A stretch of 19,577 bases of DNA from a virus. Taxonomy: Duplodnaviria > Heunggongvirae > Uroviricota > Caudoviricetes. The notes beneath the pieces were generated by a model. It was not told where the DNA came from. It did not search any database and was given only the letters and a program-made list of their open reading frames with translations. Below are positions 4,115 through 19,577 of this stretch, piece by piece. Both the position numbers and the translations under genes were made by a program. Where the stretch lies: the IMG/VR virus record IMGVR_UViG_2671180460_000010, positions 1 to 19,577 of that record; one strand, given 5' to 3'. The stretch's first letter is position 1; each line of letters begins with the position of its first letter.

Positions 4115-4191
4115 TGATAAACCTCGTAACTATTTTTAGGGTGAACAAATCCCTGCCATTTCTGACATATAAAAATGAAACCGGATATTAA

Positions 4192-5081: not shown

Positions 5082-5087
5082 TATAAT
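5082..5087 (+). promoter_or_regulatory. Candidate sigma70 -10 element (TG-adjacent TATAAT) for the 5119..5637 gene
   Basis: ttTGTATAATcc lies 31 nt upstream of the ATG at 5119. The -35 is weak (ttcccc region), consistent with an extended -10 type promoter. Confidence 0.4.
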
Positions 5088-5118
5088 CCGGATACCCCAA
5101 CAACAAAGAGAGTTAAGA

Positions 5119-5637
5119 ATGCTATCTGGAATAACTTCATCAATAACGGCAATTAAAGTCTCGATTGATTTATTACAGGTAATACTTGATGCAAAAAGCC
5201 AATCTGAACGTGAAAAGGCTGTCTACGAAATGCGTCGCCAACTGGCAGACTTACAAATACAGAACGCAGAGCTAGCGAAAACGCTCGCGCTTCAGTACGA
5301 GGAAATACTCTTGCTTAAGCAAAAATGTCATGAAATTGACGAGCGTAATCGAAAACTTGAATGCTATACGATACACAAAACTGGTTTTGGGCATTTTGTC
5401 TATGCTTTCAGGAACAGCCTCGACGAAGAAGACACATGTTTTCACTATGCCTGTCCCAATTGCTATCAGCATGGTGTAATAGCAATACTTCAACCTGTTG
5501 AAATTGGTGAGCATGATAAGTTCCATATTTCTAAATGCCTGAAATGTGATTCGCGCTTTAAATTTGAACGCAATGATGACTATATACCGCCCCCATCTGA
5601 AGAAGAGATAGGTAGAGCATTGAGCAGCAATCCGTAG
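5119..5637 (+). CDS. Hypothetical coiled-coil protein with C-terminal CxxC...CxxC zinc-ribbon-like motif (172 aa)
   Basis: Start at internal Met (MLSGITSS) with GAGAG RBS. Predicted heptad-rich central segment (QLADLQIQNAELAKTLALQYEEILLLKQKCHEIDERNRKLE). C-terminus has CPNC...(22 aa)...CLKC. Opposite strand to all neighbours, with its own promoter. Confidence 0.6.
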   Translation: MLSGITSSITAIKVSIDLLQVILDAKSQSEREKAVYEMRRQLADLQIQNAELAKTLALQYEEILLLKQKCHEIDERNRKLECYTIHKTGFGHFVYAFRNSLDEEDTCFHYACPNCYQHGVIAILQPVEIGEHDKFHISKCLKCDSRFKFERNDDYIPPPSEEEIGRALSSNP

Positions 5638-5799
5638 GTTATTGCTGTTGTGGATATCCAGATTGTTAAAGAGCATGCCGGAAGGTTATCCGTGTCCGGC
5701 GCACGACCACACGTAGCAGCGTGTTGGTCTCCATTTTTAATTCACCCCTTAATGGAGGATAAAATAATCGTGGTGCTGGTCGGCTCGGTCCCGCAGGTG

Positions 5800-6447
5800 T
5801 TACCCTTTAAACCAGTCAATCCAGAGCGGATAGTGTTCAGCATAAATATAGCTATACACATCCAGGTTGTATTTGCGGTCTGTCCTTAGCAGGTCGCAAA
5901 TACAGGCCGCAGCTTCCAGGGCAGCAGCTTTGTTGCTGAATAACCATGTAGCAACATTCCGGCGATTATCTGTATCCCACTCTTTTGTGAGGGCTGACAC
6001 CACGAAGGAGCCGTTGGTGTTGCCATCAAATACTTCCGTTTCCAGATTTTTAAGTAATGCCTGGTGAATTTTTGCCAGGTATTCAGTCGGAATTTCGCCA
6101 CGAATTCGGATAAGGTTGTCATAAACAAACATGTTCCCCGCATATGGCGATTTTTCTTTCTTTTGTTCACTGGCAGGCTGGTCAATTTCGTCTTCGGTTG
6201 GTTTCGTATTGATGTTTTGCGTTATCGTTTCTGCAATGGGCTTTGCTTTATTTTCTACACAATGATTGTTTGTGAACGAATCTGAATACAGTCCGGTAAA
6301 AGAATTGCGGACATGATTTGATAAATTTCTGATGAACACTTTATCTACTAATATCATTGGGTTCCGCGCCAGTTGCGAGCGAATCACATCAGCGGCCATT
6401 TCCTGTATTGAAATTGGTAAATCTTTAAATTCCATAGTCAACCTCAT
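5800..6447 (-). CDS. Hypothetical protein (215 aa), second gene of the leftward early operon
   Basis: Long ORF with GAGG RBS. Start is 6447 (MRLT) or 6435 (MEFKDL). No motif I can assign to a known family. Confidence 0.6.
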   Translation of the reverse strand: MRLTMEFKDLPISIQEMAADVIRSQLARNPMILVDKVFIRNLSNHVRNSFTGLYSDSFTNNHCVENKAKPIAETITQNINTKPTEDEIDQPASEQKKEKSPYAGNMFVYDNLIRIRGEIPTEYLAKIHQALLKNLETEVFDGNTNGSFVVSALTKEWDTDNRRNVATWLFSNKAAALEAAACICDLLRTDRKYNLDVYSYIYAEHYPLWIDWFKG

Positions 6448-6459
6448 CAGTCGGTGGTT

Positions 6460-6666
6460 TTAAATCACTCGCGAAACGTTTAATGCCGCGCTTTTTGCCA
6501 GAGCGGTAATATCCTGCGTCACTGACGCCAGTGTTTCAGAGAGGCGCTCTTTGTGATCAGTGGCCTGCTTCAGGTCATTAATGGCGCGTATCTTCCCGCG
6601 CATCCACTCATAAAGTTCATCATCGGTATAGCCTGGCGCGATGATGACGGGTTCTCGTTTCTGCAT
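6460..6666 (-). CDS. Hypothetical protein (68 aa), first gene downstream of the pL-like promoter
   Basis: ORF 12 nt upstream of the 215-aa gene on the same strand, about 180 nt downstream of a strong leftward promoter. Not Arg-rich, so not an obvious lambda N-type antiterminator. Confidence 0.5.
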   Translation of the reverse strand: MQKREPVIIAPGYTDDELYEWMRGKIRAINDLKQATDHKERLSETLASVTQDITALAKSAALNVSRVI

Positions 6667-6854
6667 GCTGATTCCTCTCAGTGCTGTTTCCCCTTAACGC
6701 CGGGGTAGCGGAACAAAAACCTGCTGCATAGTTAAAGTTGAACCCTGCCGTCATGTTCATACGCCTCGGGCTGGCTACTTAACCCCTGACCACTGCCTGG
6801 TAACTCGAAGTATTGCCCTGCGTTCTGTGGGATGGGGTGGGTTGGCATGGGAAA

Positions 6855-6898
6855 ACTATAGGTAATGCCTAATTATTTGTCAATAGGCTATGCCTAAT
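6855..6898 (-). promoter_or_regulatory. pL-like early-left promoter with overlapping operator half-sites (OL-like)
   Basis: On the minus strand: TTGACA (plus coords 6878..6883), 17-nt spacer, TATAGT (6855..6860). The -35 is embedded in ATTAGGCatagcctATT, and further GCCTAAT half-sites occur at about 6864..6876 and 6913..6925. Confidence 0.55.
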
Positions 6899-6991
6899 GA
6901 TTTAAGGGCAACCTAATAGGTGATGGTGTGTGGGAGAGGTAGTAGGAGTTAACTAACGGGATCTAGGAATTTCCCGTCGGACCATATAAGT

Positions 6992-7468
6992 TTAAGTACC
7001 TGTCTTGGTGATATTCTGGCTTTTCCGTTTTGATTCTTGATTTTTCAAATAGTTACCTACCTTCATTTCCATTGCGGCAATGTAGGCGCGAACGTCATGA
7101 TCAACCCAACTAGGCTCCGTAGCATTTCCAGATAAGAGGAAAGCTACAATTGCTCTTTTTTCATCAGAGGCGGCTTGATAAAGGCTGTTTATGTCTAAGA
7201 GTTCACTTTTTGTATCTGAAGTGGATGGGGTTGGTATGGGGTATTCGTTAAGCCCCCAATGCTCTGGACCAACCACATCAGAAAAGAAACGCCATAGTTC
7301 TGGAAGTTTGTCTTTACTTATCGAACCTTTCTTAATCCAGTCATGGATTGATGGTGGTTGGACTTTGAAATGACGTGCGATCTCCGCCTTTGATTTGACG
7401 GCCCCTGATGCAATTTTTTTGTTAATGGCCTGCTCTATCGCTCGGCCTAAGTCTTTACCACTAAGCAT
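6992..7468 (-). CDS. Prophage repressor, HTH (XRE-like) family, RacR-like; no C-terminal S24 peptidase domain evident
   Basis: 158-aa ORF with GGAGA RBS. N-terminal HTH-like segment (KSKAEIARHFKVQPPSIHDWIKKG). Sits between mirrored promoters/operators and is divergent from a Cro-like gene. Size and arrangement match the Rac racR-ydaS-ydaT layout. Confidence 0.7.
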   Translation of the reverse strand: MLSGKDLGRAIEQAINKKIASGAVKSKAEIARHFKVQPPSIHDWIKKGSISKDKLPELWRFFSDVVGPEHWGLNEYPIPTPSTSDTKSELLDINSLYQAASDEKRAIVAFLLSGNATEPSWVDHDVRAYIAAMEMKVGNYLKNQESKRKSQNITKTGT

Positions 7469-7520
7469 TGCTTAATAGTCTCCTATGCGTATCGCGTTAG
7501 GCAATCCCTATCTTTAATGT

Positions 7521-7570
7521 ATTAGGCATAGCCTATTGACAATGATATTAGGCGCAGCCTAATATCATTG
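7521..7570 (+). promoter_or_regulatory. pR-like early-right promoter with operator palindromes (OR-like)
   Basis: -35 TTGACA (7536..7541), 18-nt spacer, -10 TAATAT (7560..7565). A 31-bp perfect palindrome CAATGATATTAGGC-gca-GCCTAATATCATTG (7540..7570) overlaps the promoter. A second site ATTAGGCatagcctATTGACAA (7521..7542) is the exact reverse complement of 6877..6898. Confidence 0.6.
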
Positions 7571-7592
7571 TGTGTTTTTTGGAGTTCACTCG

Positions 7593-7916
7593 ATGAAAAA
7601 AGAGAACTATTCATTCAAACGAGCTTGTGCTGTTGTCGGTGGGCAATCAGCAATGGCTAGGCTTTTAGGTGTATCACCTCCAAGCGTAAATCAATGGATC
7701 AAAGGTGTACGTCAGTTACCTGCTGAGAGATGTCCTGCGATTGAACGAGCAACAAAAGGTGGTGTCCTGTGTGAAGAACTTCGTCCTGATGTTGATTGGT
7801 CATACTTACGACGCTCGTCATGTTATTCGCAGAATATGTCGATGAAGCAACCAAATGACGAAAACGATCATACCCGAAGCATCAAGAGGCAAATGATTCA
7901 TGAAAATCAAGCATGA
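7593..7916 (+). CDS. ydaS: Cro-like HTH regulator, YdaS family
   Basis: Start at ATG 7593 with GGAG RBS. HTH signature (ACAVVGGQSAMARLLGVSPPSVNQWIKGVRQLP). Divergent from the repressor, and its stop overlaps the start of the next gene. Confidence 0.8.
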   Translation: MKKENYSFKRACAVVGGQSAMARLLGVSPPSVNQWIKGVRQLPAERCPAIERATKGGVLCEELRPDVDWSYLRRSSCYSQNMSMKQPNDENDHTRSIKRQMIHENQA

Positions 7917-8325
7917 ACACATCCGCATGGCGATGAATGCCTGGGCACATCTGAACGGTGAAAAAGTTCCGGCTGCGAAAATTACCAAAGCGTATTTCGA
8001 ACTGGGTATGACGTTCCCGGAACTGTACGACGACAGCCATCCGGAAGCCCTGGGCCGTAACACCCAGAAAATTTTCCGCTGGGTGGAGAAAGACACTCCT
8101 GATGCGGTTAAAAAAATTCAGGCGTTGTTACCAGCGATCGAAAAAGCGATGCCGCCTCCGCTGGTGGCCCGAATGCGCAGCCACAGTTCCGCTTATTTTC
8201 GGGAGTTGGTAGAGACGAAGGAACGGCTGGTGAAAGATATTGATGATTTCGTTGCATCAGCGATCGTTCTGTTCGATCAGATGAATCGTGGTGGCCCGGC
8301 AGGAAACACTCTGGCTGTGCATTAA
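7900..8325 (+). CDS. ydaT: YdaT-family protein (CII-like / putative toxin of the debated YdaS-YdaT pair)
   Basis: 141-aa ORF starting MKIKHEHI, overlapping the YdaS-like gene by 17 nt. Same position as ydaT in Rac-type immunity regions. Confidence 0.7.
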   Translation: MKIKHEHIRMAMNAWAHLNGEKVPAAKITKAYFELGMTFPELYDDSHPEALGRNTQKIFRWVEKDTPDAVKKIQALLPAIEKAMPPPLVARMRSHSSAYFRELVETKERLVKDIDDFVASAIVLFDQMNRGGPAGNTLAVH

Positions 8326-8338
8326 TTGGGTAATAAAT

Positions 8339-8848
8339 ATGAGTAATGACAAAAAATTGACACTGAGCGTTTACGAAAACAGTCCGCACATCTGGCGTGG
8401 CGGTTTATCTGATGTGGAGCTGGCAGAGTGGTTGATACATAAAGCTAATGCGCTGCTCTGGCGTTTGTCAGCCAGAGAGCAGCGCAAGGAAACCAGAATA
8501 AAGCTGGCTGATGCAGAAGCGTGTGCCGGGCTTATTGAGGATTATACAAATCTTGGTATTTCTTCAGCAGAGAGTGATCCCATTCAGCCTCTGAGCAGGG
8601 AGTCAATCCAGCACGCTGGTTGTATGGCACATCTTGTAACTGCTCGTCAACATGAGGTGGGTATTGGATCACTTCCGGTGGGATATTCGCTGATTACAGA
8701 GCTGGTTGAAGCAAGAAAATCAGTTCAGAAAAAGAGAGATGACGCACTTCAATTATTGAGAGAGCACTATGGCGCGATACCAGAATGCGAACAGCGTCGA
8801 TACCCTGAAGGTTATGAATGGATGCAGTCTCTTTTTGAAGCTCGCTAA
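8339..8848 (+). CDS. Hypothetical protein (169 aa)
   Basis: ORF starting at internal Met (MSNDKKLTLSV) immediately after the YdaT-like gene, in the early-right operon. No assignable motif. Confidence 0.55.
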   Translation: MSNDKKLTLSVYENSPHIWRGGLSDVELAEWLIHKANALLWRLSAREQRKETRIKLADAEACAGLIEDYTNLGISSAESDPIQPLSRESIQHAGCMAHLVTARQHEVGIGSLPVGYSLITELVEARKSVQKKRDDALQLLREHYGAIPECEQRRYPEGYEWMQSLFEAR

Positions 8849-9065
8849 TCAATATGTCGAGACGAAGGTATGTTTCGGCGCGCAGCCAGGCTCTGTAATC
8901 CGGGAGCATTTCGGGGCTGTTACACCAGCGGTTTGTTGCTGCAACATTTAATACGTGAGCCTGATAAAGGCTTTTCAAAAAATACATGTCGAACCTCCTC
9001 TGGTTCTGTCGATTGGGAACCACAGATTATATCCGGAGGAAGGTTCGGCACCAGATGAGGTAGCC

Positions 9066-10175
9066 ATGCGTGATTACGCAAAAGTTTCTCCGCGATTCTG
9101 GCTGGGAGAAACGGGGAGAGAACTTAGAAAGGCGGGTGCAGAAGCGCAAGTTGTTGCTTTTTACCTGATGACATCCCCTCACGCAAATATGCTGGGTTTG
9201 TATTACCTGCCAGTTTTATACCTTGCTCATGAAACCGGGCTTGGTCTGGAAGGGGCTTCAAAGGGGCTTAAAAGGGCTGTTGAAGCTGGTTTTTGTAGCT
9301 ATGACCATGATGCCGAGATGGTCTGGGTCCATGAAATGGCAGCCTGGCAGGTTGGGGAAACGTTGAAGCCTGGCGATAACCGTTGTGCAGGTGTCAGGAA
9401 TGAGTATGCATCATTACCTGAAAACGCTTTTCTGTCAGCGTTTTACGACAGATATAAAACGGATTTCCATCTGGATGTGAGGCGGAATAATAGCCGAAAT
9501 TCGGTAAGGGGCTTCGAAGGGGCTTTTAAGGGGCTTCGAAGCCAAGAACAGGAGCAGGAGAAAGAACAGGAACAGGACAAAAACACTATAGCTCATGGCG
9601 AAAAAAACACCACGAACCAGGCAGGGGATGTTCAGACCGTAAATTCTGGTCAGCCAGCAGGCACGACACCGGAAGCCGATTCGGCGTATGCGCTGAAAGC
9701 CGATTCGGGCGCTGTGCAGCAGGTGATGACCGCAGGGTCGGAGCAATCACACCAACTGCAGCAGCCTGAAGCCGATTCCGCCATTCAGCGGGAAGCCGAT
9801 CGGGTAGTCCCGGAAAACACCGGGCGGCCTGTGGGACGAGTGGATTATCCGGATGTGTTCGAACAGGTCTGGCGGGAATACCCGTTGCGTGCCGGGGCAA
9901 ACCCGAAGAAATCCGCATTCAGTGCCTGGAAGGCCAGATTGCGCGAGGGGGTGCCACCAGAGACCATGCTGGATGGTGTGAGGCGTTACGCGAGATACCT
10001 GGCGGCGACCGGGAAAGCGGGAACGGAATTTGTTCAGCGAGCGACGACGTTTTTTGGACCGGACCGGAATTTTGAAAACCCCTGGTTGCTCCCGGTAAGC
10101 GGCACGAACAACCAGCGTTGCGTGAATCACATTTCTGAACCGGATACCGAAATTCCGCCGGGGTTCAGGGGGTAA
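9066..10175 (+). CDS. Replication initiation protein (lambda O-like / replisome organiser) with internal iterons
   Basis: Long ORF directly upstream of a DnaC-like gene with a 6-nt gap. ATG at 9066 has a GAGG RBS; an in-frame GTG at 8955 is an alternative start. The coding sequence contains two clusters of 11-bp-phased AAGGGGCTT repeats and an A-rich tract, as in lambdoid O genes that contain ori. Confidence 0.6.
   Translation: MRDYAKVSPRFWLGETGRELRKAGAEAQVVAFYLMTSPHANMLGLYYLPVLYLAHETGLGLEGASKGLKRAVEAGFCSYDHDAEMVWVHEMAAWQVGETLKPGDNRCAGVRNEYASLPENAFLSAFYDRYKTDFHLDVRRNNSRNSVRGFEGAFKGLRSQEQEQEKEQEQDKNTIAHGEKNTTNQAGDVQTVNSGQPAGTTPEADSAYALKADSGAVQQVMTAGSEQSHQLQQPEADSAIQREADRVVPENTGRPVGRVDYPDVFEQVWREYPLRAGANPKKSAFSAWKARLREGVPPETMLDGVRRYARYLAATGKAGTEFVQRATTFFGPDRNFENPWLLPVSGTNNQRCVNHISEPDTEIPPGFRG
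9250..9620. repeat. Putative replication origin: iteron clusters (AAGGGGCTT x3 at 9250..9279 and x3 at 9506..9540, 11-bp phasing) plus A-rich tract (9545..9620)
   Basis: Direct reading. Repeats start at 9250, 9261 and roughly 9271, and at 9506, 9517 and 9528. They are followed by caggagcaggagaaagaacaggaacaggacaaaaacac...aaaaaaacacc. Confidence 0.4.
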
Positions 10176-10181
10176 CGGGTT

Positions 10182-10928
10182 ATGAAAAATATTGCGGCAG
10201 GTGGTGTTCTTGAACGCATCCGTAAGCTGGCCCCGCAGCATGTAACCGCGCCGTACCGGACAGTGGACGAGTGGCGAGAGTGGCAGCTTGCAGAAGGGCG
10301 AAAGCGTAGTGAGGAAATTAACCGCCAGAATCGCCAGATCCGGGTGGAGAAAATTATGAAGCGTTCCGGTATCCAACTGTTGCACCAGAAGTGTTCGTTT
10401 GCGAATTACCAGGTGAAGAACGACGGGCAACGATACGCGTTGAGCCAGGCGAAATCTATCGCCGATGAACTGATGACCGGATGCACAAATTTCGTGTTCA
10501 GCGGTAAGCCGGGTACCGGAAAGAACCACCTTGCAGCTGCCATTGGTAATCATCTTCTGACGAAAGGTCACAGCGTGATAGTGATAACGGTGGCAGATGT
10601 GATGCTGGCGTTACACGGCAGCTACGACAACAAGAACTCGGGCGAAAAATTTTTGCAGGGGTTGTGTGACGTCGATCTGCTGGTTCTGGATGAAATTGGT
10701 ATGCAGCGGGATACGCGCAATGAGCAGGTTACGCTGAACCAGATAGTCGATCGCAGAACGGCCTCGATGCGTAGTGTCGGAATGCTGACAAATCTGAACC
10801 ACACGGCAATGAGCGCCCTTTTAGGCGAACGGGTGATGGACCGCATGACCATGAACGGTGGTCGCTGGGTGAATTTTAACTGGGAGAGCTGGCGTTCAAA
10901 TGTCAGCCATTTAAGGGTTGTGAAGTAA
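10182..10928 (+). CDS. DnaC-like replicative helicase loader (IstB-like AAA+ ATPase)
   Basis: Walker A (FSGKPGTGKNHLAAA) and Walker B (LLVLDEIG) motifs. Tightly follows the O-like gene. 248 aa. Confidence 0.9.
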   Translation: MKNIAAGGVLERIRKLAPQHVTAPYRTVDEWREWQLAEGRKRSEEINRQNRQIRVEKIMKRSGIQLLHQKCSFANYQVKNDGQRYALSQAKSIADELMTGCTNFVFSGKPGTGKNHLAAAIGNHLLTKGHSVIVITVADVMLALHGSYDNKNSGEKFLQGLCDVDLLVLDEIGMQRDTRNEQVTLNQIVDRRTASMRSVGMLTNLNHTAMSALLGERVMDRMTMNGGRWVNFNWESWRSNVSHLRVVK

Positions 10929-10942
10929 TTTCAGGAGGACTC

Positions 10943-11335
10943 ATGGCAAGCGTTTTTACACCCGAACAGCGGGAAGAACTGAAGGCACGAATTATCGGGC
11001 TGATACACAGGAACAAACGCATGACGATGTCGCAACTGGAGAGGGAAACGGGGGCGGGCTGGCATACGGTCAGACGTTGTCTTGTGGATGTGGTTGCTTG
11101 TGGTGATTTGTACATATCCGGTAAACACGGTGTTTTTGTATCAGAACAGGCGTATCAGGCGTGGTGTAAAACTCCGAAGAAAGCTGACCCGGCACTGGTC
11201 CGGAAGTTACCTGATGGTGAAATCCGTCGCTACGACAGAGACATGAACATAATTTGCCGGGAATGCCGTAACAGCGAATCAATGCAACGTGTACTGGCGT
11301 TCTATCGGGGTAATTTTCAGGAGGTGATGGAGTGA
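10943..11335 (+). CDS. Hypothetical protein with N-terminal winged-helix-like segment (130 aa)
   Basis: ORF with AGGAGG RBS (tttcaggaggactcATG). Possible HTH at MSQLERETGAGWHTVRRCL. Its stop overlaps the next gene's start (GTGA). Confidence 0.6.
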   Translation: MASVFTPEQREELKARIIGLIHRNKRMTMSQLERETGAGWHTVRRCLVDVVACGDLYISGKHGVFVSEQAYQAWCKTPKKADPALVRKLPDGEIRRYDRDMNIICRECRNSESMQRVLAFYRGNFQEVME

Positions 11336-11628
11336 GGGCGAGGGTTTATATCGCCGGTCCAATGACGGGCTATGAAAATTTCAACCGTGAAGCATTTCAC
11401 AGGGCGGAAGAGGAACTGAAACGGGAAGGGCATACCGTCTTAAACCCGGCAGTACTTCCGGACGGACTGACTCAGTCGCAGTACATGGATATCTGCATGG
11501 CGATGATACGTTGCGTGGATGCGATTTACATGCTGAATGGCTGGCAGCGGTCGGCGGGTGCCAGGGCAGAACTGGCGCTGGCGGAGAAGCTGGGGCATGC
11601 AGTTATTTTCCAGGAGGAGGTACAGTGA
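11332..11628 (+). CDS. DUF4406-like protein (nucleoside 2-deoxyribosyltransferase-like fold)
   Basis: GTG start with AGGAGG RBS 8 nt upstream. N-terminal VYIAGPMTG motif typical of this family. 98 aa. Confidence 0.65.
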   Translation: MRARVYIAGPMTGYENFNREAFHRAEEELKREGHTVLNPAVLPDGLTQSQYMDICMAMIRCVDAIYMLNGWQRSAGARAELALAEKLGHAVIFQEEVQ

Positions 11629-11909
11629 ATATCGACGCAACAATGACGATTGGTACGGCCCTCAATACGGGGCTGGCGCTTCTTGGTTGGTGCTACGTCA
11701 TGTTCTGCTCATGGCGGTGGCTGTCACTGATGTTACTGAAAAAATGGAATAAACGCTGTAAACAGACGCAGCGGCAGAAGGCAATGAATGCGTTTGTTGA
11801 GACCTTCGATATTGACAGTATGGAACCAGGAGAGCCAGCTCGCGTGATTAGCAGAGGTGACGTTGTAATTCTTGTATACCGGAGTGAAGAGAAAAATGAG
11901 CGAAATTAA
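11625..11909 (+). CDS. Small hypothetical membrane protein (94 aa)
   Basis: GTG start overlapping the upstream stop (GTGA), with AGGAGGAGG RBS. One strongly hydrophobic segment (TIGTALNTGLALLGWCYVMFCSWRWLSLMLL). An alternative ATG start lies at 11640. Confidence 0.45.
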   Translation: MNIDATMTIGTALNTGLALLGWCYVMFCSWRWLSLMLLKKWNKRCKQTQRQKAMNAFVETFDIDSMEPGEPARVISRGDVVILVYRSEEKNERN

Positions 11910-12052
11910 CTATCAGGCACTGCGTGAAGAAGAGAAAGCATAATCCAAATCTGAATAATTAAATTCAGCACTGTAAATAAAACTTAATCCTTAACCGGAG
12001 GGATTTCTGCACCCTCAGAACATCAGGAGGCCGCCCGAAAGGGTGGTAATGA

Positions 12053-12271
12053 ATGGTCACATTATTTAGAAAAAAATATCCGCGAAGGAGTAGAACAACA
12101 GAATTTTTGTTTCTCATTCTGTTTATCGTATTGATGATACCGATATCCCCGCTAATTTTTGTCTGGGCAATCGGGAAAATAATTGAGCCAGTTATTGAAT
12201 TGTATAACGACGTGGTGTGGGCGTCGTTCAACACACTGCACAATAAAATTAATCCGTATAAGGAAAGCTGA
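12053..12271 (+). CDS. Small hypothetical membrane protein (72 aa) in AT-rich segment
   Basis: ORF with GGTGG-type RBS. Hydrophobic core (FLFLILFIVLMIPISPLIFVWAIG). Its stop lies 1 nt before the HNH gene start. Confidence 0.35.
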   Translation: MVTLFRKKYPRRSRTTEFLFLILFIVLMIPISPLIFVWAIGKIIEPVIELYNDVVWASFNTLHNKINPYKES

Positions 12272-12272
12272 T

Positions 12273-12638
12273 ATGGCACTGACGAAAAAACAACGTGCAG
12301 AGCTGCGCATGAAGTTCGGCGGTCGCTGTGCTTATTGCGGCTGCGAACTTGGCGAAAAGTGGCATGCAGACCATGTAAAACCGGTCATTCGTTTTGATGG
12401 AAATATGCTTCACCAGGAACGTGACGATATATCCAACATGGTTCCGGCATGCCACCCATGCAATCTGCACAAGCATTGCAGTAGTCTGGAAGATTATCGG
12501 CGAATTATCAGTGATGGTCGTCGTGAATTCCTTGCGTCCGGGAAAGGCAAAGCGCTGGTTCGTATGGGATTGGTTGAAATGAAATCTGACCCGGTTGTGT
12601 TCTGGTTTGAAAAATATCAAGAAGGGGCTACGGCATGA
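12273..12638 (+). CDS. HNH endonuclease
   Basis: Start at ATG 12273 with AAGGAAAG RBS. Cys/His HNH pattern: CAYCGC...WHADHVKP...NMVPACHPCNLHK. Confidence 0.8.
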   Translation: MALTKKQRAELRMKFGGRCAYCGCELGEKWHADHVKPVIRFDGNMLHQERDDISNMVPACHPCNLHKHCSSLEDYRRIISDGRREFLASGKGKALVRMGLVEMKSDPVVFWFEKYQEGATA

Positions 12639-13033
12639 CCACTTTTACCAATAGCAAACTAACAGACGAATACGTTTCAAATGCAACGTTGATTCGGCTC
12701 ATTCTGTGGGCTGACCAGCACAATAGCCATTATGTTGTAGCGGCTCTGCGCGAGCTACAGGAGCGCCGCAAGGCTGATAGTGTGTCTGTAGAAATCAACG
12801 ACGACATGGCTTACGCATTCCATCATGCACTGTCAGACTCATCTCCAGGTGCTGATGAGGTAGAGGAAATTAAGGCCGGGTTGCGTGCTGCCTTTGCCAA
12901 TGTCACTGTCCAGCCGGTGCTGATAGTGCCGGATGAAATGGATTTGCTTACCTGCCATCTCGACGGTGTAACTGAAACATATGCTGATGGCTGGAACGCC
13001 TGCCGCGCCACCATGCTTAAGGGAGATAAATAA
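12635..13033 (+). CDS. Hypothetical protein (132 aa)
   Basis: ORF in the operon, overlapping the HNH stop by 4 nt. No assignable motif. Confidence 0.55.
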   Translation: MTTFTNSKLTDEYVSNATLIRLILWADQHNSHYVVAALRELQERRKADSVSVEINDDMAYAFHHALSDSSPGADEVEEIKAGLRAAFANVTVQPVLIVPDEMDLLTCHLDGVTETYADGWNACRATMLKGDK

Positions 13034-13617
13034 TGATTAATCGAACCAAACTGGAACACATTCTCGAATATGCCAGGCAGCAGAAATGTATTGGGCAACT
13101 TTGTAAAATTCCACCAGGAGATATGGTTGAAATCGTGGAAATGGCCATGCGTAAGGCTGGCAACTCTCCGGTAACTCCGGCTCGCCTGCCTGGCGGTTTC
13201 ACCATTGAGGATGCGAAGGAGTTACATGAAGACCTGGTACGCAGCCACATAAGCCAGGCTTTAAGTTGTGAGAGGATGAAAAAGAACGATCGCGATGCTG
13301 ATTTGCGCTGGATTCATGGCGTTATAGTTCAGGCCGCGTGGTTTGTAAAAGCGTCACTGGAGCAGAATGCGCTAACGGGCAACTCTCCGGTAACACCGGC
13401 TGACTGGATAAGCTGTAGTGAGCGAATGCCTGAAAAGAACCAGAACGTGCTTATTTCGGTGAATTTCGATAGCTCTCTGGTTGAACCGCTAATATGCTCC
13501 GCACGCTATACAGGAAGCACATTCCGGCGAGGAGAAGCAACGATTAAGCCGGGTAATGGTATTGAGCAGGCAACTCACTGGATGCCGCTACCGGAGCCAC
13601 CGCAGGAGGTGAACTGA
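13033..13617 (+). CDS. DUF551-like phage protein with internal GNSPVTPA repeat
   Basis: C-terminal HWMPLPEPP motif characteristic of DUF551. A 24-nt near-exact direct repeat within the gene encodes GNSPVTPA twice. Confidence 0.65.
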   Translation: MINRTKLEHILEYARQQKCIGQLCKIPPGDMVEIVEMAMRKAGNSPVTPARLPGGFTIEDAKELHEDLVRSHISQALSCERMKKNDRDADLRWIHGVIVQAAWFVKASLEQNALTGNSPVTPADWISCSERMPEKNQNVLISVNFDSSLVEPLICSARYTGSTFRRGEATIKPGNGIEQATHWMPLPEPPQEVN

Positions 13618-14012
13618 TGAAAAATGAAGTCGACAATGTTATCACCCTTGTACAGCCAAAATCAGAGGAGGAAGGACTCCTCAACGTTGTGATAACCGAC
13701 AGAAAAAGCGTCGAGCAAAAATGCTGTCAGCATTTCCGTACAACAATTTCAGAAGTGAATCGTACGATTACCTGCAAACGGTGTGGATTGGCTTTAGATC
13801 CGTTTGAACTTGTTCTCGACCGTGCGAGAAACGGTGAAAACATCGTGTCAGAGATTAAATCACTCTATACAAAGCGGGATGCTCTTCGTGAAGCTGTGGC
13901 AAAACTTGAACGTGAAGAGAAAAACGCCAAAGCGCGGTTACGAGCAGTCAGGACAGCAATACTGTATGCGGAAAATGACCTTAAAAATATTGAGCAGGAG
14001 GTGAATCGATGA
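13617..14012 (+). CDS. Hypothetical protein with Cys-rich N-terminal half and coiled-coil-like C-terminus (131 aa)
   Basis: ORF with ATGA overlap to the upstream gene. KCCQHF...TCKRCG motif; Lys/Glu/Arg-rich C-terminal helix. Confidence 0.55.
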   Translation: MKNEVDNVITLVQPKSEEEGLLNVVITDRKSVEQKCCQHFRTTISEVNRTITCKRCGLALDPFELVLDRARNGENIVSEIKSLYTKRDALREAVAKLEREEKNAKARLRAVRTAILYAENDLKNIEQEVNR

Positions 14013-14086
14013 CCGAAGCATTCACAACGGCAGGAATTGCGATGGCGGTGGCGCTGGTGGTGTATTCGATTTGCCGCTGGGGATAA
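14009..14086 (+). CDS. Possible 25-aa hydrophobic peptide (MTEAFTTAGIAMAVALVVYSICRWG)
   Basis: ATGA-coupled to the upstream gene, AGGAGG 6 to 7 nt upstream, and followed immediately by a terminator. Too short for confident calling. Confidence 0.3.
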   Translation: MTEAFTTAGIAMAVALVVYSICRWG

Positions 14087-14092
14087 CAAACA

Positions 14093-14122
14093 AAAACCCC
14101 GGATTGACGGTCCGGGGTTTTT
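14093..14122 (+). terminator. Rho-independent terminator ending the nin-like operon
   Basis: CCCCGGA-ttgacgg-TCCGGGG stem-loop followed by TTTTT. Confidence 0.7.
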
Positions 14123-14344
14123 GAAGGAAACAAACAGAAACAACAATTGCCGTTATCTGTTGCCACCAATGACAAGTAAACGTATCTCAGGCGAGCGCAT
14201 TGCGCCGTTCTGACGCGGATACATTAGCCTGGGCAGAAGGTTCTGGCAATAAAAAATAGCGTTTTCTTATCGGTGTCGGTAAGATTGTTGCGGGTGCTTG
14301 AGGCTGTCTGCCTCGGGCATGCCACTGTAAGGCAGACAGAGAAA

Positions 14345-14447
14345 AGCCCCAGTTAACATCACGCGTCCTGCAAGACGCTTAACATTAATCTGAGGCTCAA
14401 TCCATGCTGAACACATGTAGGTTAGCCTCTTACGTGCCGAAAGGCAA
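14345..14447 (-). ncRNA. Putative Sok-like antisense RNA and its promoter (type I antitoxin)
   Basis: Minus-strand promoter: -35 TTGCCT (plus coords 14442..14447), 17-nt spacer, -10 TAACCT (14419..14424). The architecture mirrors the R1 sok promoter, which sits antisense to the hok leader. The 3' end is not defined. Confidence 0.35.
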
Positions 14448-14460
14448 GGAGAAGCAGGCT

Positions 14461-14616
14461 ATGAAGCAGCAAAAGGCGATGTTAATCGCCCTGATCGTCA
14501 TCTGTTTAACCGTCATAGTGACGGCACTGGTAACGAGGAAAGACCTCTGCGAGGTACGAATCCGAACCGGCCAGACGGAGGTCGCTGTCTTCACAGCTTA
14601 CGAATCTGAGGAGTAA
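14461..14616 (+). CDS. hok: Hok/Gef-family type I toxin (51 aa)
   Basis: MKQQKAMLIALIVICLTVIVTALVTRKDLCEVRIRTGQTEVAVFTAYESEE is a near-match to the Hok/Gef family (HokD/RelF-like). The leader GGTGCTTGAGGCTGTCTGCC...AAGGAGAAG parallels the hok mRNA fold-back elements. The in-frame upstream extension from 14404 may correspond to a mok-like translational coupling frame. Confidence 0.85.
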   Translation: MKQQKAMLIALIVICLTVIVTALVTRKDLCEVRIRTGQTEVAVFTAYESEE

Positions 14617-14687
14617 GAGACCTGGCGGGGGGATTTTTATCCCCCGCCACCTCTGATGTGTCAGGCATCCTCAACGCACCCGCACTT

Positions 14688-14710
14688 AACCCGCTTCGGC
14701 GGGTTTTTTC
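14688..14710 (+). terminator. Rho-independent terminator at the 3' end of the hok transcript
   Basis: CCCGC-ttcg-GCGGG followed by TTTTTT. A GGCGGGGGGA/TCCCCCGCC hairpin precedes it at 14624..14648. Confidence 0.7.
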
Positions 14711-14746
14711 ACGTACTGTGGTTGTGAATACGATTGGTATTAGGCT

Positions 14747-14765
14747 ATGCTAACAACATTAGCAT
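14747..14765. promoter_or_regulatory. Operator-like perfect inverted repeat ATGCTAA-caaca-TTAGCAT upstream of the antitoxin/Doc pair
   Basis: Direct reading; lies about 60 nt upstream of the small ORF at 14828, near TTGTGA/TATGCT and TTGACT promoter-like hexamers. Confidence 0.4.
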
Positions 14766-14827
14766 GACTAATTTTGTATTGACTTAATTTTTGTTAAAGA
14801 ACAGGACGGAGAAGTAAGGGTACACCA

Positions 14828-15007
14828 ATGAGCTACGCACTAAAAAAACACCCGCGATTGACTATTCCCCCTCGCGATAAAAGCGTTGTGGCAGATCCGC
14901 GCCCGGCTATCGATGAAAATTGTACTCATCGTGAGCAGGTGAAAAATGCTTTCGATTTCGGTTTTTCTCGTTACGAGAAGGCAATGGAAGATCTTTCAAA
15001 AGTGTAA
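14828..15007 (+). CDS. Small protein upstream of Doc-family toxin; putative cognate antitoxin (59 aa)
   Basis: Short ORF (below the ORF-track cutoff) with AAGGG RBS, ending 18 nt before the Doc-like gene. Typical antitoxin-toxin gene order. No family assignment possible from sequence alone. Confidence 0.45.
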   Translation: MSYALKKHPRLTIPPRDKSVVADPRPAIDENCTHREQVKNAFDFGFSRYEKAMEDLSKV

Positions 15008-15025
15008 TGATAGGTATTGTGCTCT

Positions 15026-15511
15026 ATGGCTGAGATTGTTGAAGGAGTGCACTACCTCTCGGTTGATGATCTTACTGAAATCAATCGCCTTTTAATTGAG
15101 CTTCAAACACCAGATGAACCTGTTGGTGTGCTGAGTGTTGATAATTTAAGTTCTTCTCAGTCTCGTCCCAGTATGGTTCGATGGTATGAGCAAACCAACG
15201 ACATGTTTGTACTGGCATCGGTATTGATTGAAAGTCTGATTCAGAATCATCCATTTGCCAATGCAAACAAGCGCACAGCAATGATGGCTGGTGCGGTTTT
15301 TTTATTGTTAAATGGATACGAATTAACCGCGCCAGGCGATGAAGTTGTGGAGATGGCTGAGGGGCTGGCCTGTAAAATTTATACACGAGAAGAGCTTGAA
15401 AATTGGTTGTGTTATTGGTCTCGTGCGTATGACAGTCGGGAATTATGTAAAACAGGCGCAACTATTGTTTTGTATGAAACGATCAAGCTTAAAATAGAAC
15501 AGCAAAACTAA
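15026..15511 (+). CDS. doc: Doc/Fic-family toxin (death-on-curing-like)
   Basis: Motif HPFANANKRTAMMAGAVFLLLNGY matches the Doc signature HxFx(D/N)ANKR. An alternative TTG start lies at 15017. Confidence 0.8.
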   Translation: MAEIVEGVHYLSVDDLTEINRLLIELQTPDEPVGVLSVDNLSSSQSRPSMVRWYEQTNDMFVLASVLIESLIQNHPFANANKRTAMMAGAVFLLLNGYELTAPGDEVVEMAEGLACKIYTREELENWLCYWSRAYDSRELCKTGATIVLYETIKLKIEQQN

Positions 15512-15525
15512 AGATGCTTCTAATG

Positions 15526-15555
15526 AAAACCCGCTTTGGCGGGTTTTGTTTTTTC
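15526..15555 (+). terminator. Rho-independent terminator after the Doc-like gene
   Basis: AAAACCCGC-tttg-GCGGGTTTT followed by GTTTTTTC. Confidence 0.75.
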
Positions 15556-15626
15556 TGCGTATTCTGGTTTACAATTTGCACGCCAGCCTGAACAACTGGC
15601 ACCTGCTGCGCCAGCAGAGAAAACCG

Positions 15627-15899
15627 ATGGCGCACAATACCAAACCACACAATTCTGATACCGTCTTTGCCAGCAGGCGCGGACGGCATTCGCACATATT
15701 TAAAGCTGACTGGTACCAGCATGATCCATGCACTGAAGAACAGGCCGAATGGCTGATTCAGAACTACCGCAGACGCGGATACGAGATTAAGAAAGCCCTC
15801 AGCCTCGATTATCGTCACTGGATAATCTACGTCAGGCTGCCGTACTCCGAGCGCCCACCGCGTCCGTCCCGTACATTCCAGCAACGCATCTGGAGGTAA
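15627..15899 (+). CDS. Hypothetical protein (90 aa), basic
   Basis: Internal Met start (MAHNTKPHN) chosen because the upstream part of the ORF overlaps the terminator. Weak RBS. Precedes the YdfU-like gene; its stop is 1 nt before the GTG of that gene. Confidence 0.4.
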   Translation: MAHNTKPHNSDTVFASRRGRHSHIFKADWYQHDPCTEEQAEWLIQNYRRRGYEIKKALSLDYRHWIIYVRLPYSERPPRPSRTFQQRIWR

Positions 15900-15900
15900 C

Positions 15901-16947
15901 GTGCGGGTATTACTTCGACCTGTTCCGGTACCGGAACTTGGGCTGGTGGTGCTAAAGCCGGGCCGTGAATCCATGCAGGTATTTCATAACCCTCGAGTGC
16001 TGGTGGAGCCGGAACCGAAAAGCATGCGTGGTCTGCCGTCCGGAGTTGTTCCTGCCGTTCGCCAGCCGCTGGCGGAAGATAAATCATTACTGCCATTTTT
16101 CAGCGATGAGCGGGTGATTCATGCTGCTGGCGGCGCTGGTGCACTGTCTGACTGGTTGTTGCGTCATGTCAAATCCTGCCAGTGGCCTCATGGTGATTAC
16201 CATCACAGCGAAACCGTCATACATCGTTACGGCACCGGCGCGATGGTGTTGTGCTGGCACTGCGACAACCAGCTGCGTGACCAGACATCCGAATCACTTG
16301 AGCAACTTGCTCAACAAAACCTGACAGCATGGATGATTGACGTCATCCGTCACGCAATAAGCGGTGCGCAGGAGCGTGAATTATCGCTGGCTGAATTATC
16401 CTGGTGGGCTGTCTGCAATCAGGTGGCGGACGCACTACCGGAGGTAGTATTACGTCGTTCTCTGGGGTTACGTGCGGAAAAAATCCGCTCGGTGTACCGC
16501 GAAAGCGACATCATTCCGGGAGAGCAGGCAGCCGCCAGCATACTGAAGCAGCGCACAAAAAATCTTGCGCCGCTGCCTCACGCCCACCAGCAAAACCCAC
16601 AACAGGAAAAGACGGTGGTCAGCATTGCCGTTGATCCGGACGCTCCGGAATCTTTCATGAAACGACCTAAACGTCGCCGCTGGGTGAATGAGAAATACAC
16701 GCGCTGGGTAAAGACACAGCCGTGTACGTGTTGTGGTAAGCCAGCCGACGATCCCCATCACCTGATTGGTCATGGTCAGGGCGGAATGGGGACAAAAGCC
16801 CACGATATTTTTACGTTGCCGCTGTGCCGGGAACATCACAATGAACTTCATGCAGATCCGCAGGCGTTCGAAGAAAAGCATGGTTCTCAGGTTGATTTAA
16901 TTTTTCGTTTTCTTGATCACGCCTTTGCAACTGGCGTACTCGGATAA
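15901..16947 (+). CDS. YdfU-like prophage protein (DUF968-like C-terminal Cys/His domain)
   Basis: GTG start with GGAGG RBS 6 nt upstream. C-terminal CTCCGKPADDPHHLIGHGQGGMGTKAHDIFTLPLCREHHNELH. Position upstream of rusA and Q parallels Qin-type prophages. Confidence 0.65.
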   Translation: MRVLLRPVPVPELGLVVLKPGRESMQVFHNPRVLVEPEPKSMRGLPSGVVPAVRQPLAEDKSLLPFFSDERVIHAAGGAGALSDWLLRHVKSCQWPHGDYHHSETVIHRYGTGAMVLCWHCDNQLRDQTSESLEQLAQQNLTAWMIDVIRHAISGAQERELSLAELSWWAVCNQVADALPEVVLRRSLGLRAEKIRSVYRESDIIPGEQAAASILKQRTKNLAPLPHAHQQNPQQEKTVVSIAVDPDAPESFMKRPKRRRWVNEKYTRWVKTQPCTCCGKPADDPHHLIGHGQGGMGTKAHDIFTLPLCREHHNELHADPQAFEEKHGSQVDLIFRFLDHAFATGVLG

Positions 16948-16959
16948 AAGAGGTTACTG

Positions 16960-17319
16960 ATGCGTATAGAGTTTGTTTTGCCTTACCCGCCGACGGTGAA
17001 CACTTACTGGCGACGTCGTGGCAGCACATATTTTATATCGGAAGCCGGTAAGCGTTATCGCCGTGATGTGGCACTTATTGTTCGCCAGCAGCGGCTGAAA
17101 TTAAACCTGTCCGGAAGGCTGGCGATAACGGTTATCGCAGAGCCGCCGGATAAACGCCGTCGTGACCTGGACAATATCCTGAAAGCACCGCTGGATGCGT
17201 TGACGCATGCGGGACTGCTTATCGACGACGAGCAGTTTGATGAAATCAATATTGCGCGCGGTCAGGTCGTTCCCGGTGGGCGGCTGGGCGTGAAGATTTA
17301 CAAAATTGAAAGTGAGTGA
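16960..17319 (+). CDS. rusA: Holliday junction resolvase RusA
   Basis: 119 aa with AGAGG RBS. Characteristic LPYPPTVNTYWRRRG and DKRRRDLDNILKAPLDAL motifs (catalytic Asp cluster). Confidence 0.85.
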   Translation: MRIEFVLPYPPTVNTYWRRRGSTYFISEAGKRYRRDVALIVRQQRLKLNLSGRLAITVIAEPPDKRRRDLDNILKAPLDALTHAGLLIDDEQFDEINIARGQVVPGGRLGVKIYKIESE

Positions 17320-17870
17320 GCGTAAATATGATATACCCGGAAATTACAGGCAAAAGCGGTGAGCATTTACGCCTGAAAACGCTGGAAAGTGTCTGGCTCC
17401 AGGGGAAACTGCGTATGTGGGGGCGTTGGTCGTATATAGGTGGTGGCAAAACAGGAAATATGTTCAATCAGTTGCTGGCATCCAAAAAACTGACAAAAAC
17501 CGCGATCAATGAAGCCATGCGCAAAATCAGGGAATCAGGGATTGATAAACCTGAACTGGAAGCATTCTTGCGAGAGATGATCGCTGGCAGACAGAAGAGC
17601 TGGCTGTCTCACTGTACTGATGCAGAGGCGTTACGCATTGATGGGGTGATAAGTAAAGCGCTCGCAAGTTATCCTGGATTGATTGATATCCTGCGGCAAC
17701 GGTACGAAGGGCGGGGGATGAGTAAACGAAAAATGGCTGAATTGTTGAATGAGGTTCACCCTGAGTGGTGCTATGCAACATGCCGCAATCGTATAGATAT
17801 GTGGCTGAGAATAGCTGAGTTTATTCTATATCCACTGATGCGAGATGCATTTTCTTTTACTGACGCTTAG
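17316..17870 (+). CDS. Putative late-gene antiterminator (Q-like) by position
   Basis: 184-aa ORF directly after rusA (GTGA overlap; alternative ATG at 17328) and directly before a promoter-plus-terminator unit resembling PR'/tR'. Family assignment is not confirmed by motif. Confidence 0.45.
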   Translation: MSVNMIYPEITGKSGEHLRLKTLESVWLQGKLRMWGRWSYIGGGKTGNMFNQLLASKKLTKTAINEAMRKIRESGIDKPELEAFLREMIAGRQKSWLSHCTDAEALRIDGVISKALASYPGLIDILRQRYEGRGMSKRKMAELLNEVHPEWCYATCRNRIDMWLRIAEFILYPLMRDAFSFTDA

Positions 17871-17947
17871 AGTCTGGAGGGCGTTTGTTGTTGTACGAAG
17901 CGGATTTCTGGTTGGTGGCAAGGCTTATGCAGTTTTTAGAAAAAAGC

Positions 17948-17976
17948 TTGTATTTTTAGCCATAAACTGTTTTAAT
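17948..17976 (+). promoter_or_regulatory. PR'-like late promoter candidate
   Basis: TTGTAT (17948..17953), 17-nt spacer, TTTAAT (17971..17976), about 60 nt upstream of a strong terminator. Confidence 0.35.
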
Positions 17977-18035
17977 CCAGCTAAGCTTCGCAAAGCTGTA
18001 CCGCTAGGCGAATAGCAGACATGGACATTTGAAAG

Positions 18036-18060
18036 AGCCCGCTTTATGCGGGTTTTTTTA
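18036..18060 (+). terminator. Rho-independent terminator (tR'-like) downstream of the Q-like gene
   Basis: AGCCCGC-tttat-GCGGG followed by TTTTTTT. Confidence 0.75.
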
Positions 18061-18182
18061 TGCCTGAAAAACGGTACAGGACGTTAAACGCGCTGATGGT
18101 TGCGAATACCGGTCTTTCAGCTTGCTGGCTTTTTCGACAAGAGCTATTGGTATGTCACGTTAACCAGAAAAGGAAAAAAGAC

Positions 18183-18380
18183 ATGCTAAAACAGCAGGAT
18201 ATGACCGAAACTGCCAGAGTGGTGTTTAATGAATTAAGCGTCACCGAACCGGCGACCGTCGGGGAAATTGCGCAGAATACTTACCTTTCACGCGAACGCT
18301 GCCAGTTAATACTGACCCAGCTTGTTATGGCGGGTCTGGCAGATTATCAGTTCGGTTGTTACAGACGCCTTCCGCAGTGA
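18183..18380 (+). CDS. Small hypothetical protein, possible winged-helix DNA-binding (66 aa)
   Basis: Internal Met start (MLKQQDMTETAR) with AAAGGAAAA RBS, chosen because the upstream part of the ORF overlaps the terminator. Segment TVGEIAQNTYLSRERCQLILTQLVMAGL resembles a recognition helix context. Confidence 0.4.
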   Translation: MLKQQDMTETARVVFNELSVTEPATVGEIAQNTYLSRERCQLILTQLVMAGLADYQFGCYRRLPQ

Positions 18381-18530
18381 AGGCTTTTTAATTTGTGGTA
18401 ATGGGCGGCTGGTGGGTGTTAGCGGCACCTGCCAGCCATCTGCTCATGCGTTGGGGTCACAAGCAAACCTCAGGCCCATCTGCTTTGCGCAAAAGCGGTA
18501 TGAGCCTATCAGAGAAGTGCTTATTGATCT

Positions 18531-19577
18531 ATGGCTAATACTGTAAAAATATCCAGTTGTGAGTTAATCAACGCTGATTGCCTGGAATTTATCCGGACCT
18601 TACCGGAAAACTCCGTCGATCTGATAGTCACAGACCCGCCATACTTTAAAGTGAAGCCCGAGGGCTGGGATAACCAGTGGAAGGGCGACGCTGATTACCT
18701 GCAATGGCTGGACCAGTGTCTTGCGCAGTTCTGGCGGGTATTAAAACCCGCCGGAAGTCTTTACCTGTTCTGTGGTCATCGCCTGGCATCTGATACCGAA
18801 ATCATGATGCGTGAACGCTTTAATGTACTGAACCACATTATCTGGGCGAAGCCGTCCGGACGCTGGAACGGGTGCAACAAGGAAAGCCTGCGGGCGTATT
18901 TCCCGGCAACAGAGCGCATTCTGTTTGCTGAACATTACCAGGGGCCATACCAGCCCAAAAATGACGGTTATGCAGCAAAGGGGCGCGAGCTTAAGCAACA
19001 CGTCATGGCACCGATGATTTCTTACTTTCGTGATGCGCGGGAATCACTGGGGATAACGTCGAAACAGATAGCGGAAGCCACCGGAAAGAAAAACATGGTT
19101 TCGCACTGGTTTGGTACCAGTCAGTGGCAGTTACCGAATGAGGCCGATTACAGTAAACTGCAGGCGCTGTTTGCACGTGTGGCGGCAGAAAAACACCAGC
19201 GCGGTGAACTGGAGCAGCCACACCACCAGCTGGTCAGCACATACAGCGAACTGAACCGGCAATATGTCAGCCTGCTGGAGGAATACAAATCACTGCGGCG
19301 TTATTTTTCCGTATCGGCTGTCGTTCCTTATACGGATGTCTGGACGCACAAGCCCGTGCAGTATTATCCGGGCAAACATCCCTGTGAAAAACCGGCGGAT
19401 ATGTTGCGTCAGATAATTACTGCCAGCAGCCGTCCAGGCGATTTGGTCGCAGATTTTTTTATGGGGTCAGGTTCCACGATAAAAGCGGCACTGTTGCTGG
19501 GACGCAGGGCGATTGGCGTGGAACTGGAAGAGGAACGTTTTAATCAGACGGTCAGAGAAATAACGAAAGATTTTTAA
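18531..19577 (+). CDS. DNA methyltransferase, N6-adenine/N4-cytosine (DPPY) type, beta-class motif order
   Basis: Motif IV DPPY near the N-terminus (DLIVTDPPYF) and motif I FxGxGxT near the C-terminus (DFFMGSGST). Complete 348-aa ORF ending at the window edge. Confidence 0.9.
   Translation: MANTVKISSCELINADCLEFIRTLPENSVDLIVTDPPYFKVKPEGWDNQWKGDADYLQWLDQCLAQFWRVLKPAGSLYLFCGHRLASDTEIMMRERFNVLNHIIWAKPSGRWNGCNKESLRAYFPATERILFAEHYQGPYQPKNDGYAAKGRELKQHVMAPMISYFRDARESLGITSKQIAEATGKKNMVSHWFGTSQWQLPNEADYSKLQALFARVAAEKHQRGELEQPHHQLVSTYSELNRQYVSLLEEYKSLRRYFSVSAVVPYTDVWTHKPVQYYPGKHPCEKPADMLRQIITASSRPGDLVADFFMGSGSTIKAALLLGRRAIGVELEEERFNQTVREITKDF

Follow-up and report, generated by a model that had tools for sequence, protein, structure and literature searches.

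The stretch of DNA treated here, called the window below, comprises 19,577 nucleotides (positions 1 to 19,577 of the IMG/VR virus record IMGVR_UViG_2671180460_000010, Caudoviricetes) and has the make-up of a Rac-type lambdoid prophage, with genes for an integrase, a RecE-like exonuclease, a YdaT-like protein, a DnaC-like replication protein, DUF977, DUF551, RusA and Q/DUF1133, the plus strand carrying all genes from about 7.5 kb onward. At 14290-15555 two toxin modules lie in tandem, a type I hok locus and, directly behind it, a cassette in which a gene for a Doc-family toxin is preceded by a small gene, orf59, whose product is a candidate for its antitoxin (Table 1). The modules occupy a slot with DUF977, DUF551 and other small genes of the nin-region type on its 5' side and orf90, DUF968 (YdfU), RusA and Q/DUF1133, in that order, on its 3' side, and so the gene content at both ends agrees with an earlier note made from the letters alone (the original prediction), which had placed them between a nin-like region and a YdfU/RusA/Q block.

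Table 1. Features of the slot and its borders, in order along the window (ORF, open reading frame)
Feature	Positions	Strand	Description
pep25	14009..14086	+	25-codon hydrophobic ORF, MTEAFTTAGIAMAVALVVYSICRWG; start overlaps the stop of the preceding 131-residue gene
Terminator-like hairpin	14091..14123	none	A and T runs on either side; from the terminator scan; fold -23 kcal/mol, z -5.05
hok mRNA unit	14291..14710	+	Full length, 5' tac element through terminator
Sok antisense RNA	14342..14412	-	Predicted type I antitoxin; aligned to the annotated sokW RNA of phage 933W (L165, 2559-2629)
mok	14404..14616	+	70 codons, in frame with hok and with the same stop codon; layout as in annotated mokW/hokW
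hok	14461..14616	+	51-residue membrane toxin
Hairpin copy 1	14688..14707	+	AACCCGCTTCGGCGGGTTTT; hok terminator and left edge of the Doc cassette; direct-repeat family D1
Doc cassette	14708..15547	+	840-bp insertion relative to empty sites: upstream region, orf59, doc, terminator
orf59	14828..15007	+	59-residue candidate Doc antitoxin; 18 nt 5' of doc on the same strand; PHROG 2208 (function unassigned)
doc	15026..15511	+	161-residue Doc-family (Fic-fold) protein, predicted kinase; HPFANANKRTA at residues 75-85
Hairpin copy 2	15528..15547	+	AACCCGCTTTGGCGGGTTTT; a T tract follows as far as about 15555; bounds the Doc cassette on the right
orf90	15627..15899	+	90 residues; PHROG 1212 (E 1.5e-36), function unassigned; directly 5' of ydfU; right anchor of the slot
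ydfU-like gene	15901..16947	+	DUF968 / HNH-type (Pfam DUF968, E 8e-77); first gene of the ydfU-rusA-Q block

Two toxin modules and the partner of Doc

The hok reading frame is recognised by Pfam HOK_GEF (E 1.2e-23, residues 6-47) and by PHROG 251 (E 6e-33), its product is 98% identical to K-12 HokD (by tblastn), and the leader at 14292-14466 matches the Rfam family RF01794 'sok' with 114 bits against a gathering score of 59 (E 1e-25). Across the sokW region of phage 933W the window is about 97% identical, and its Mok shares 96% identity with MokW. In the fold of the whole transcript (14291-14712) both the minimum free energy and the centroid structure pair 14291-14303 with 14669-14682, which amounts to the tac-fbi closure familiar from the R1 hok mRNA, at an energy of -176 kcal/mol (z -6.8 against shuffles). 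The transcript runs into a hairpin at 14688-14705 and then a T run (-11.8 kcal/mol, z -4.0), a terminator which the pattern scanner missed because extension of the stem consumed part of the T run. Judged by these matches 14291-14710 holds a whole type I module, hok and mok with a predicted sok, that differs very little from hokW-sokW.

The layout of mok in frame with hok recurs in hokW-sokW of the Stx phages 933W and Sp5, as do the complement of sok, the tac-fbi pairing and the terminator. That pair was shown experimentally to be a type I system, the HokW toxin showing up after prophage induction and roughly doubling the release of Sp5; R1 hok/sok had earlier been reported to lower T4 plating (PMC8621323). 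The settings differ, in that hokW of 933W is found close to the right genome end, beside a YgiW-like gene, whereas hok of the window lies 5' of Q, and, set against the hokW and hokD loci, the window has a complete hok locus with a Doc cassette following it. A diverged allele may be seen in the Doc-carrying locus L051, where at about 2700-2960 (cargo coordinates 411-614) a 67-residue Hok-like ORF replaces the usual hok, with identity of only 52% and that over its C-terminal 23 residues, a divergence that makes it a different hok allele at the same position.

The doc product matches NCBIfam TIGR01550 (DOC_P1, E 3.8e-35) and Pfam Fic (E 1.6e-11), and among structures in the Protein Data Bank (PDB) it finds 9vzc, a 'death-on-curing family protein' (E 6e-14), and P1 Doc itself (3k33, E 2e-4), with the motif aligned. 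Residues H75, F77, N79, N81, K82, R83 and T84 of that motif are invariant in 32 homologues from many Enterobacterales, and a C-terminal extension is conserved to residue 141, the tail beyond it being variable among the homologues. An AlphaFold2 model built with these 32 homologues was poor (mean predicted local distance difference test score, pLDDT, of 50) and was not used. With phd-doc of phage P1 the cassette shares a toxin of the DOC_P1 subfamily carrying the Doc-type motif HxFxxANKR, an antitoxin-first gene order with a short gap, and a neutralising element predicted to be a C-terminal helix; its Doc is longer, at 161 residues against the 126 of P1 Doc. The latter phosphorylates EF-Tu and so halts translation. 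A terminator scan found a hairpin with a following T run at 15526-15547 (-14.3 kcal/mol, z -4.0) behind doc. In E. coli genomes RefSeq (as labelled by PGAP) names the products 'Hok/Gef family protein', 'hypothetical protein' and 'type II toxin-antitoxin system death-on-curing family toxin', and with the same three genes so annotated and the matches given above the observation behind the original prediction, of a hok module and a Doc-type module side by side and each with its own terminator, is confirmed, all its parts being present at about the positions given and the matches lying far above chance.

The gene directly 5' of doc appears to be its constant companion. All 80 viral loci found to encode a relative of this Doc carry orf59 in that position, at 61-100% identity and with a gap of 6-18 nt, and the order is kept also in loci without hok (L037, L038, L050 and L052-L084), among them those of distant enterobacterial phages in which the pair lies inside tail-gene regions. 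Three divergent homologues lie 2-15 nt 5' of Fic/Doc genes, and so the linkage holds down to about 35% identity. The 24 distinct variants are all of 59 residues and share an almost invariant C-terminus, QVKNAFDFGFSRYEKAMEELSKV (the C-terminal 23 residues), and an AlphaFold2 model (pLDDT 72) has residues 1-33 as coil and a single helix from 34 to 57. Searching a profile of the family against 1.84 billion representative proteins yielded 37 relatives, mostly stand-alone proteins of 44-66 residues with a few of up to 95, together with partial matches to two long proteins of 1274 and 2917 residues; no fusion to a DNA-binding domain was seen in that search. Against PDB sequences the profile gave only a chance-level match to ribosomal protein S25 (E 0.75).

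The partner thus differs from that of P1 Doc, being not Phd/YefM but a protein of 59 residues without the folded N-terminal DNA-binding domain, and the lack of any Phd-type match together with the unstructured N-terminus of the model makes the pair a Doc toxin with a non-Phd partner. In published work a stabilised Phd-C helix was by itself enough to neutralise a Doc toxin, and antitoxins of a single domain are on record (PMC10440598). Because of this precedent, the linkage to doc, the constant length, the near-invariant C-terminus and the single-helix model, orf59 is probably a minimal single-helix antitoxin. On sequence grounds, then, a widespread enterobacterial Doc lineage pairs with an uncharacterised 59-residue partner and not with Phd; literature searches returned no paper on this Doc lineage or its partner. 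Three consecutive in-frame stops between orf59 and doc belong to this window only and are not conserved.

A distant homologue of orf59, protein P0168, occurs in phage late regions (L169, L170 and L171, at 2501-2665), the similarity being weak (E 2.4e-4). It lies alone between an Endonuclease_1 gene and a holin gene, with no Doc gene near, and orphans of this type could be orphan antitoxins or anti-Doc counter-defence genes.

A variable junction and its duplicated hairpin

Quite how variable the slot is was surveyed in 80 viral contigs anchored on orf90, the content upstream of which was classified into at least 14 configurations. In 21 loci hok is followed directly by orf90, and these are the empty sites. 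Elsewhere hok is joined by a gene for a 130-residue lipoprotein-like product (15 loci), by rem (10) or by the lipoprotein gene and ParDE (2); a minus-strand ParE/ParD pair without hok accounts for another 15, a remnant of the hok leader with a methylase and an NgoMIV-type endonuclease for five, and orf59-doc with rem but without hok for one. The remaining 11 single loci hold HicAB, an HTH gene with an M78 peptidase (three loci of two types), a Dcm methylase, ParDE with an MqsA-like gene, an IS4 element, an ORF6N-like gene, a 153-residue membrane protein, a 458-bp insert without an ORF, and a truncated rem. Pfam backs the cargo calls for ParDE, HicAB, NgoMIV and M78. In the NgoMIV-type configuration only the first 110 nt or so of the hok leader are kept (L102, 2695-2807), the restriction-modification cargo having replaced most of the hok locus.

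The E. coli genomes show the same variability. Of 5426 complete ones, 4135 contain a composite 'empty-site' query at 80% coverage or more, and in a spread sample of 60 E. coli records the extra bases at the junction came to 0, about 296, about 370 (rem), 574, 671, 1108 (IS481) or 1355 (HTH with ImmA/IrrE). With at least 14 configurations and such variation in size the interval, far from being invariant across relatives, varies widely, and the recurrent cargo hotspot with swapped contents which the original prediction had proposed is evident from the conserved flanks, the unrelated cargo and the empty sites.

The junction itself is marked by a hairpin. In the relatives checked, AACCCGCTTYGGCGGGTTTT follows the hok stop at a distance of 69 nt and precedes the orf90 start by 98 nt. 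Each of the 21 empty sites has one copy of it (69 + 98 = 167 nt), and two copies flank each of three unrelated cargoes, namely Doc, the lipoprotein gene, and HTH with M78. Its two copies in the window form a direct repeat 840 nt apart, identical at 19 of 20 bases, and alignment A3 shows the empty site of phage Evi to consist of the left and right flanks of the window with a single hairpin between them. Breakpoints of homology recur at 14086-14089, 14284-14289, 14707-14710, 15526-15529 and 15578-15610. Short-homology exchange or deletion at the shared terminator is a plausible explanation, and these phages encode suitable recombinases. In its conserved flanks, its interchangeable toxin-antitoxin, restriction-modification and defence-type cargo, and cargo terminators of their own, the slot resembles other cargo hotspots of prophages (moron slots); it differs from them by the 20-nt terminator hairpin, of which an empty site has one copy and which flanks unrelated cargo as a pair. 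Literature searches returned no description of this hairpin-bounded junction.

The prophage Qin of K-12 offers the nearest comparison, with the order relB-relE-hokD-rem-(an unannotated homologue of orf90)-ydfU-Q. As in the window, a type II module stands beside hok in the same region of a lambdoid prophage, 5' of ydfU and Q. However, hokD shows homology to the window only from 14447 onward, and so relBE has taken the place of the hok leader, mok and sok included; relBE is thus 5' of a leader-less hokD whereas the Doc cassette is 3' of an intact hok locus, and the junction 3' of Qin hokD is held by rem. The original prediction had relBE and hokD of Qin in the same slot as the present modules, which stands as to the region but not as to the insertion point, relBE being 5' of hokD and rem occupying the junction used by Doc.

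K-12 rem (L002, 4652-4903) is an optional cassette of the slot, present in roughly a third of the sampled sites (L093 and the L005 class), and it can stack behind the Doc cassette to give hok-T-orf59-doc-T-rem-orf90, T being a terminator. The orf90 homologue of Qin is intact and lies between rem and ydfU on the minus strand (L002, 4310-4585). One phage record names orf90 'toxin to Rem'; an identification of orf90 with Rem was rejected, the Rem of K-12 being an 87-residue cargo ORF.

Proposed workings of the cassettes and rival accounts

We hold it probable that the accessory slot of this Rac-type lambdoid prophage, which opens after the final gene of the nin region and reaches as far as the orf90-ydfU-rusA-Q block, contains two self-contained toxin-antitoxin cassettes in tandem, and that they work as follows. 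In the first cassette, of the hokW/hokD type, a stable hok mRNA would be held closed by the pairing of 5' tac with 3' fbi, and the short-lived Sok RNA from the minus strand would block translation of mok, on which translation of hok would depend; once synthesis of Sok ends, Hok would be made and the inner membrane damaged. In the second, a type II cassette, Doc as a Fic-fold kinase would, like P1 Doc, shut down translation by phosphorylating EF-Tu, and the orf59 product would restrain it by lodging a single C-terminal helix in the active-site groove of Doc, as the C-terminus of Phd does. The terminators at the cassette ends may serve for insulation in the lysogen, and in lytic growth N-modified polymerase would be expected to read through to Q, an expectation that rests on established lambda biology. 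The cassettes would owe their proximity to the hok terminator, a joint at which insertion or recombination recurs, and not to joint action. We infer that Doc is toxic and neutralised by orf59, that the cassettes are expressed in the lysogen, and that they may have roles in phage exclusion, prophage retention or lysis timing.

Several results weigh against this account. A consensus scan of the plus strand over 13900-15950 gave no sigma-70-like promoter, which bears on autonomous expression of either cassette. Among PADLOC models Doc has only weak partial matches to PDC-S23 (E 0.0016), and Hok and orf59 have none. The orf59 product has no match in Pfam or NCBIfam and no detectable similarity to any solved structure, BLASTP returned no alignment between it and P1 Phd, and two of its weakest homologues have no Fic neighbour. 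The ParDE, HicAB and restriction-modification cargoes use other junctions, without the hairpin, and so the hairpin is not the sole joint.

That hok and Doc instead form one functional unit, such as a two-layer abortive-infection island triggered together and with its adjacency selected, seems unlikely. Within the E. coli-type lineage the Doc cassette does sit directly behind hok in about 42 of 47 close viral loci, and the block of both can move whole between prophages, the homology to L001 spanning 14015-15547 at 97% and the block there being followed by DUF1367/DUF1364/DUF1133 instead of ydfU. However, the great majority of genomes have hok without Doc, hok-type DNA being found in 4751 and the Doc cassette in 125 of the 5426 complete E. 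coli genomes, and orf59-doc is found without hok in the loci named above, tail-gene regions of other phages among them; the terminators are separate, unrelated cargo uses the same junction and no shared regulatory element was seen. The hok and Doc modules are independent cassettes, and they are unrelated, as had been claimed. That they so often adjoin in the E. coli lineage is due solely to the position of the Doc cassette at the hok terminator, and nothing indicates cooperation between them.

Decay of one or both modules into inactive remnants within crumbling prophage DNA is improbable. All the ORFs are intact, and the hok leader, mok, sok complement, tac-fbi pairing and terminator are near-identical to those of the functional hokW-sokW; the catalytic residues of Doc are invariant, orf59 has kept its length and C-terminus through all its variants, and the prophage genes for integrase, replication, RusA and Q are intact. 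To be set against this, many of the hok loci on chromosomes are known to have lost their activity, that of K-12 hokD has no leader, no consensus promoter was detected, and the tail of Doc past residue 141 is variable. There is a small chance, too, that orf59 is not an antitoxin and is linked to doc by chance, Doc then being an accessory enzyme of the phage that acts unaided or together with some host factor, for instance to modify host translation during infection. The absence of similarity to known antitoxins and of a DNA-binding domain, and the orphan homologues that phage late regions carry in the absence of a Doc gene, are what such a reading would lead one to expect; yet gene order and a spacing of 2-18 nt are strictly kept across very different contexts, down to the most diverged pairs, and from what is established for P1 Doc an active Doc kinase without its inhibitor is expected to be lethal to the lysogen.

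The account of two self-contained cassettes can be extended, though the extension is tentative and on balance doubtful. In it orf59 would found a new family of minimal Doc antitoxins (about 50-60 residues, one helix, no DNA-binding domain), and the 20-nt hairpin would be a short-homology joint at which recombinases of phages, for example this prophage's RecE-type enzyme, swap or delete cassettes, the hok terminator being the docking site; the orphan homologues of orf59 would further act in counter-defence against Doc.

As for what is new here, hok/sok and Doc in tandem is a fairly ordinary arrangement, and both toxins are already named in public annotation. The hok loci of lambdoid prophages are well studied, and accessory and defence genes were already known in this part of the genome. 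What is added is a precise map of one cargo junction found in most E. coli genomes, at which the hairpin marks empty and filled sites, a map that could serve for systematic mining of cargo; a Doc lineage paired, by gene order and homology, with an uncharacterised 59-residue protein rather than Phd; and a corrected picture of relBE-hokD-rem in Qin, in which relBE replaced the hok leader, rem is optional and the 90-residue gene 5' of ydfU is unannotated in K-12.

Borders of the slot and lesser features

The last conserved element to the left of the variable slot is pep25, which is found at 57-100% identity in many related loci (by tblastn) and at the end of which, 14086-14089, homology to relatives repeatedly stops. 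It is unannotated in the RefSeq record examined (L001). The strong hairpin at 14091-14123 closes the nin-like region and, with its A and T runs, could act in both directions. Between this terminator and the start of the hok locus are some 160 bp without an ORF (14124-14283), common to the window and L001 and absent in most relatives, in which the gap is about 30 nt; Rfam at gathering thresholds gave no match there. On the right, relatives of orf90 number at least 595 in IMG/VR.

Within the immunity region, at 7900-8325, lies the YdaT-like gene, which Pfam calls 'YdaT_toxin', a name that is misleading because YdaS and YdaT are analogues of Cro and CII and not a toxin-antitoxin pair (PMC8630535).

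In the upstream region of the Doc cassette two features were noted by eye, an extended -10-like sequence, TGGTATTAG, at about 14735-14743 and a 7-bp inverted repeat, ATGCTAA-N5-TTAGCAT, at 14750-14768. The repeat is not claimed as an operator, being imperfect in most relatives, and such a reading is weakened also by another cassette variant in which the whole upstream region is replaced. The 25 nt or so that follow each copy of the hairpin are alike (14708-14730 and 15548-15575; CGTAYTnTGGTTkwvAAT, with a -35-like TTGTGA or TTTACA), and a second variant of the Doc cassette (the L045 type) starts with a similar GGTTGTAAT; this resemblance could reflect a promoter element or an extended recombination joint.

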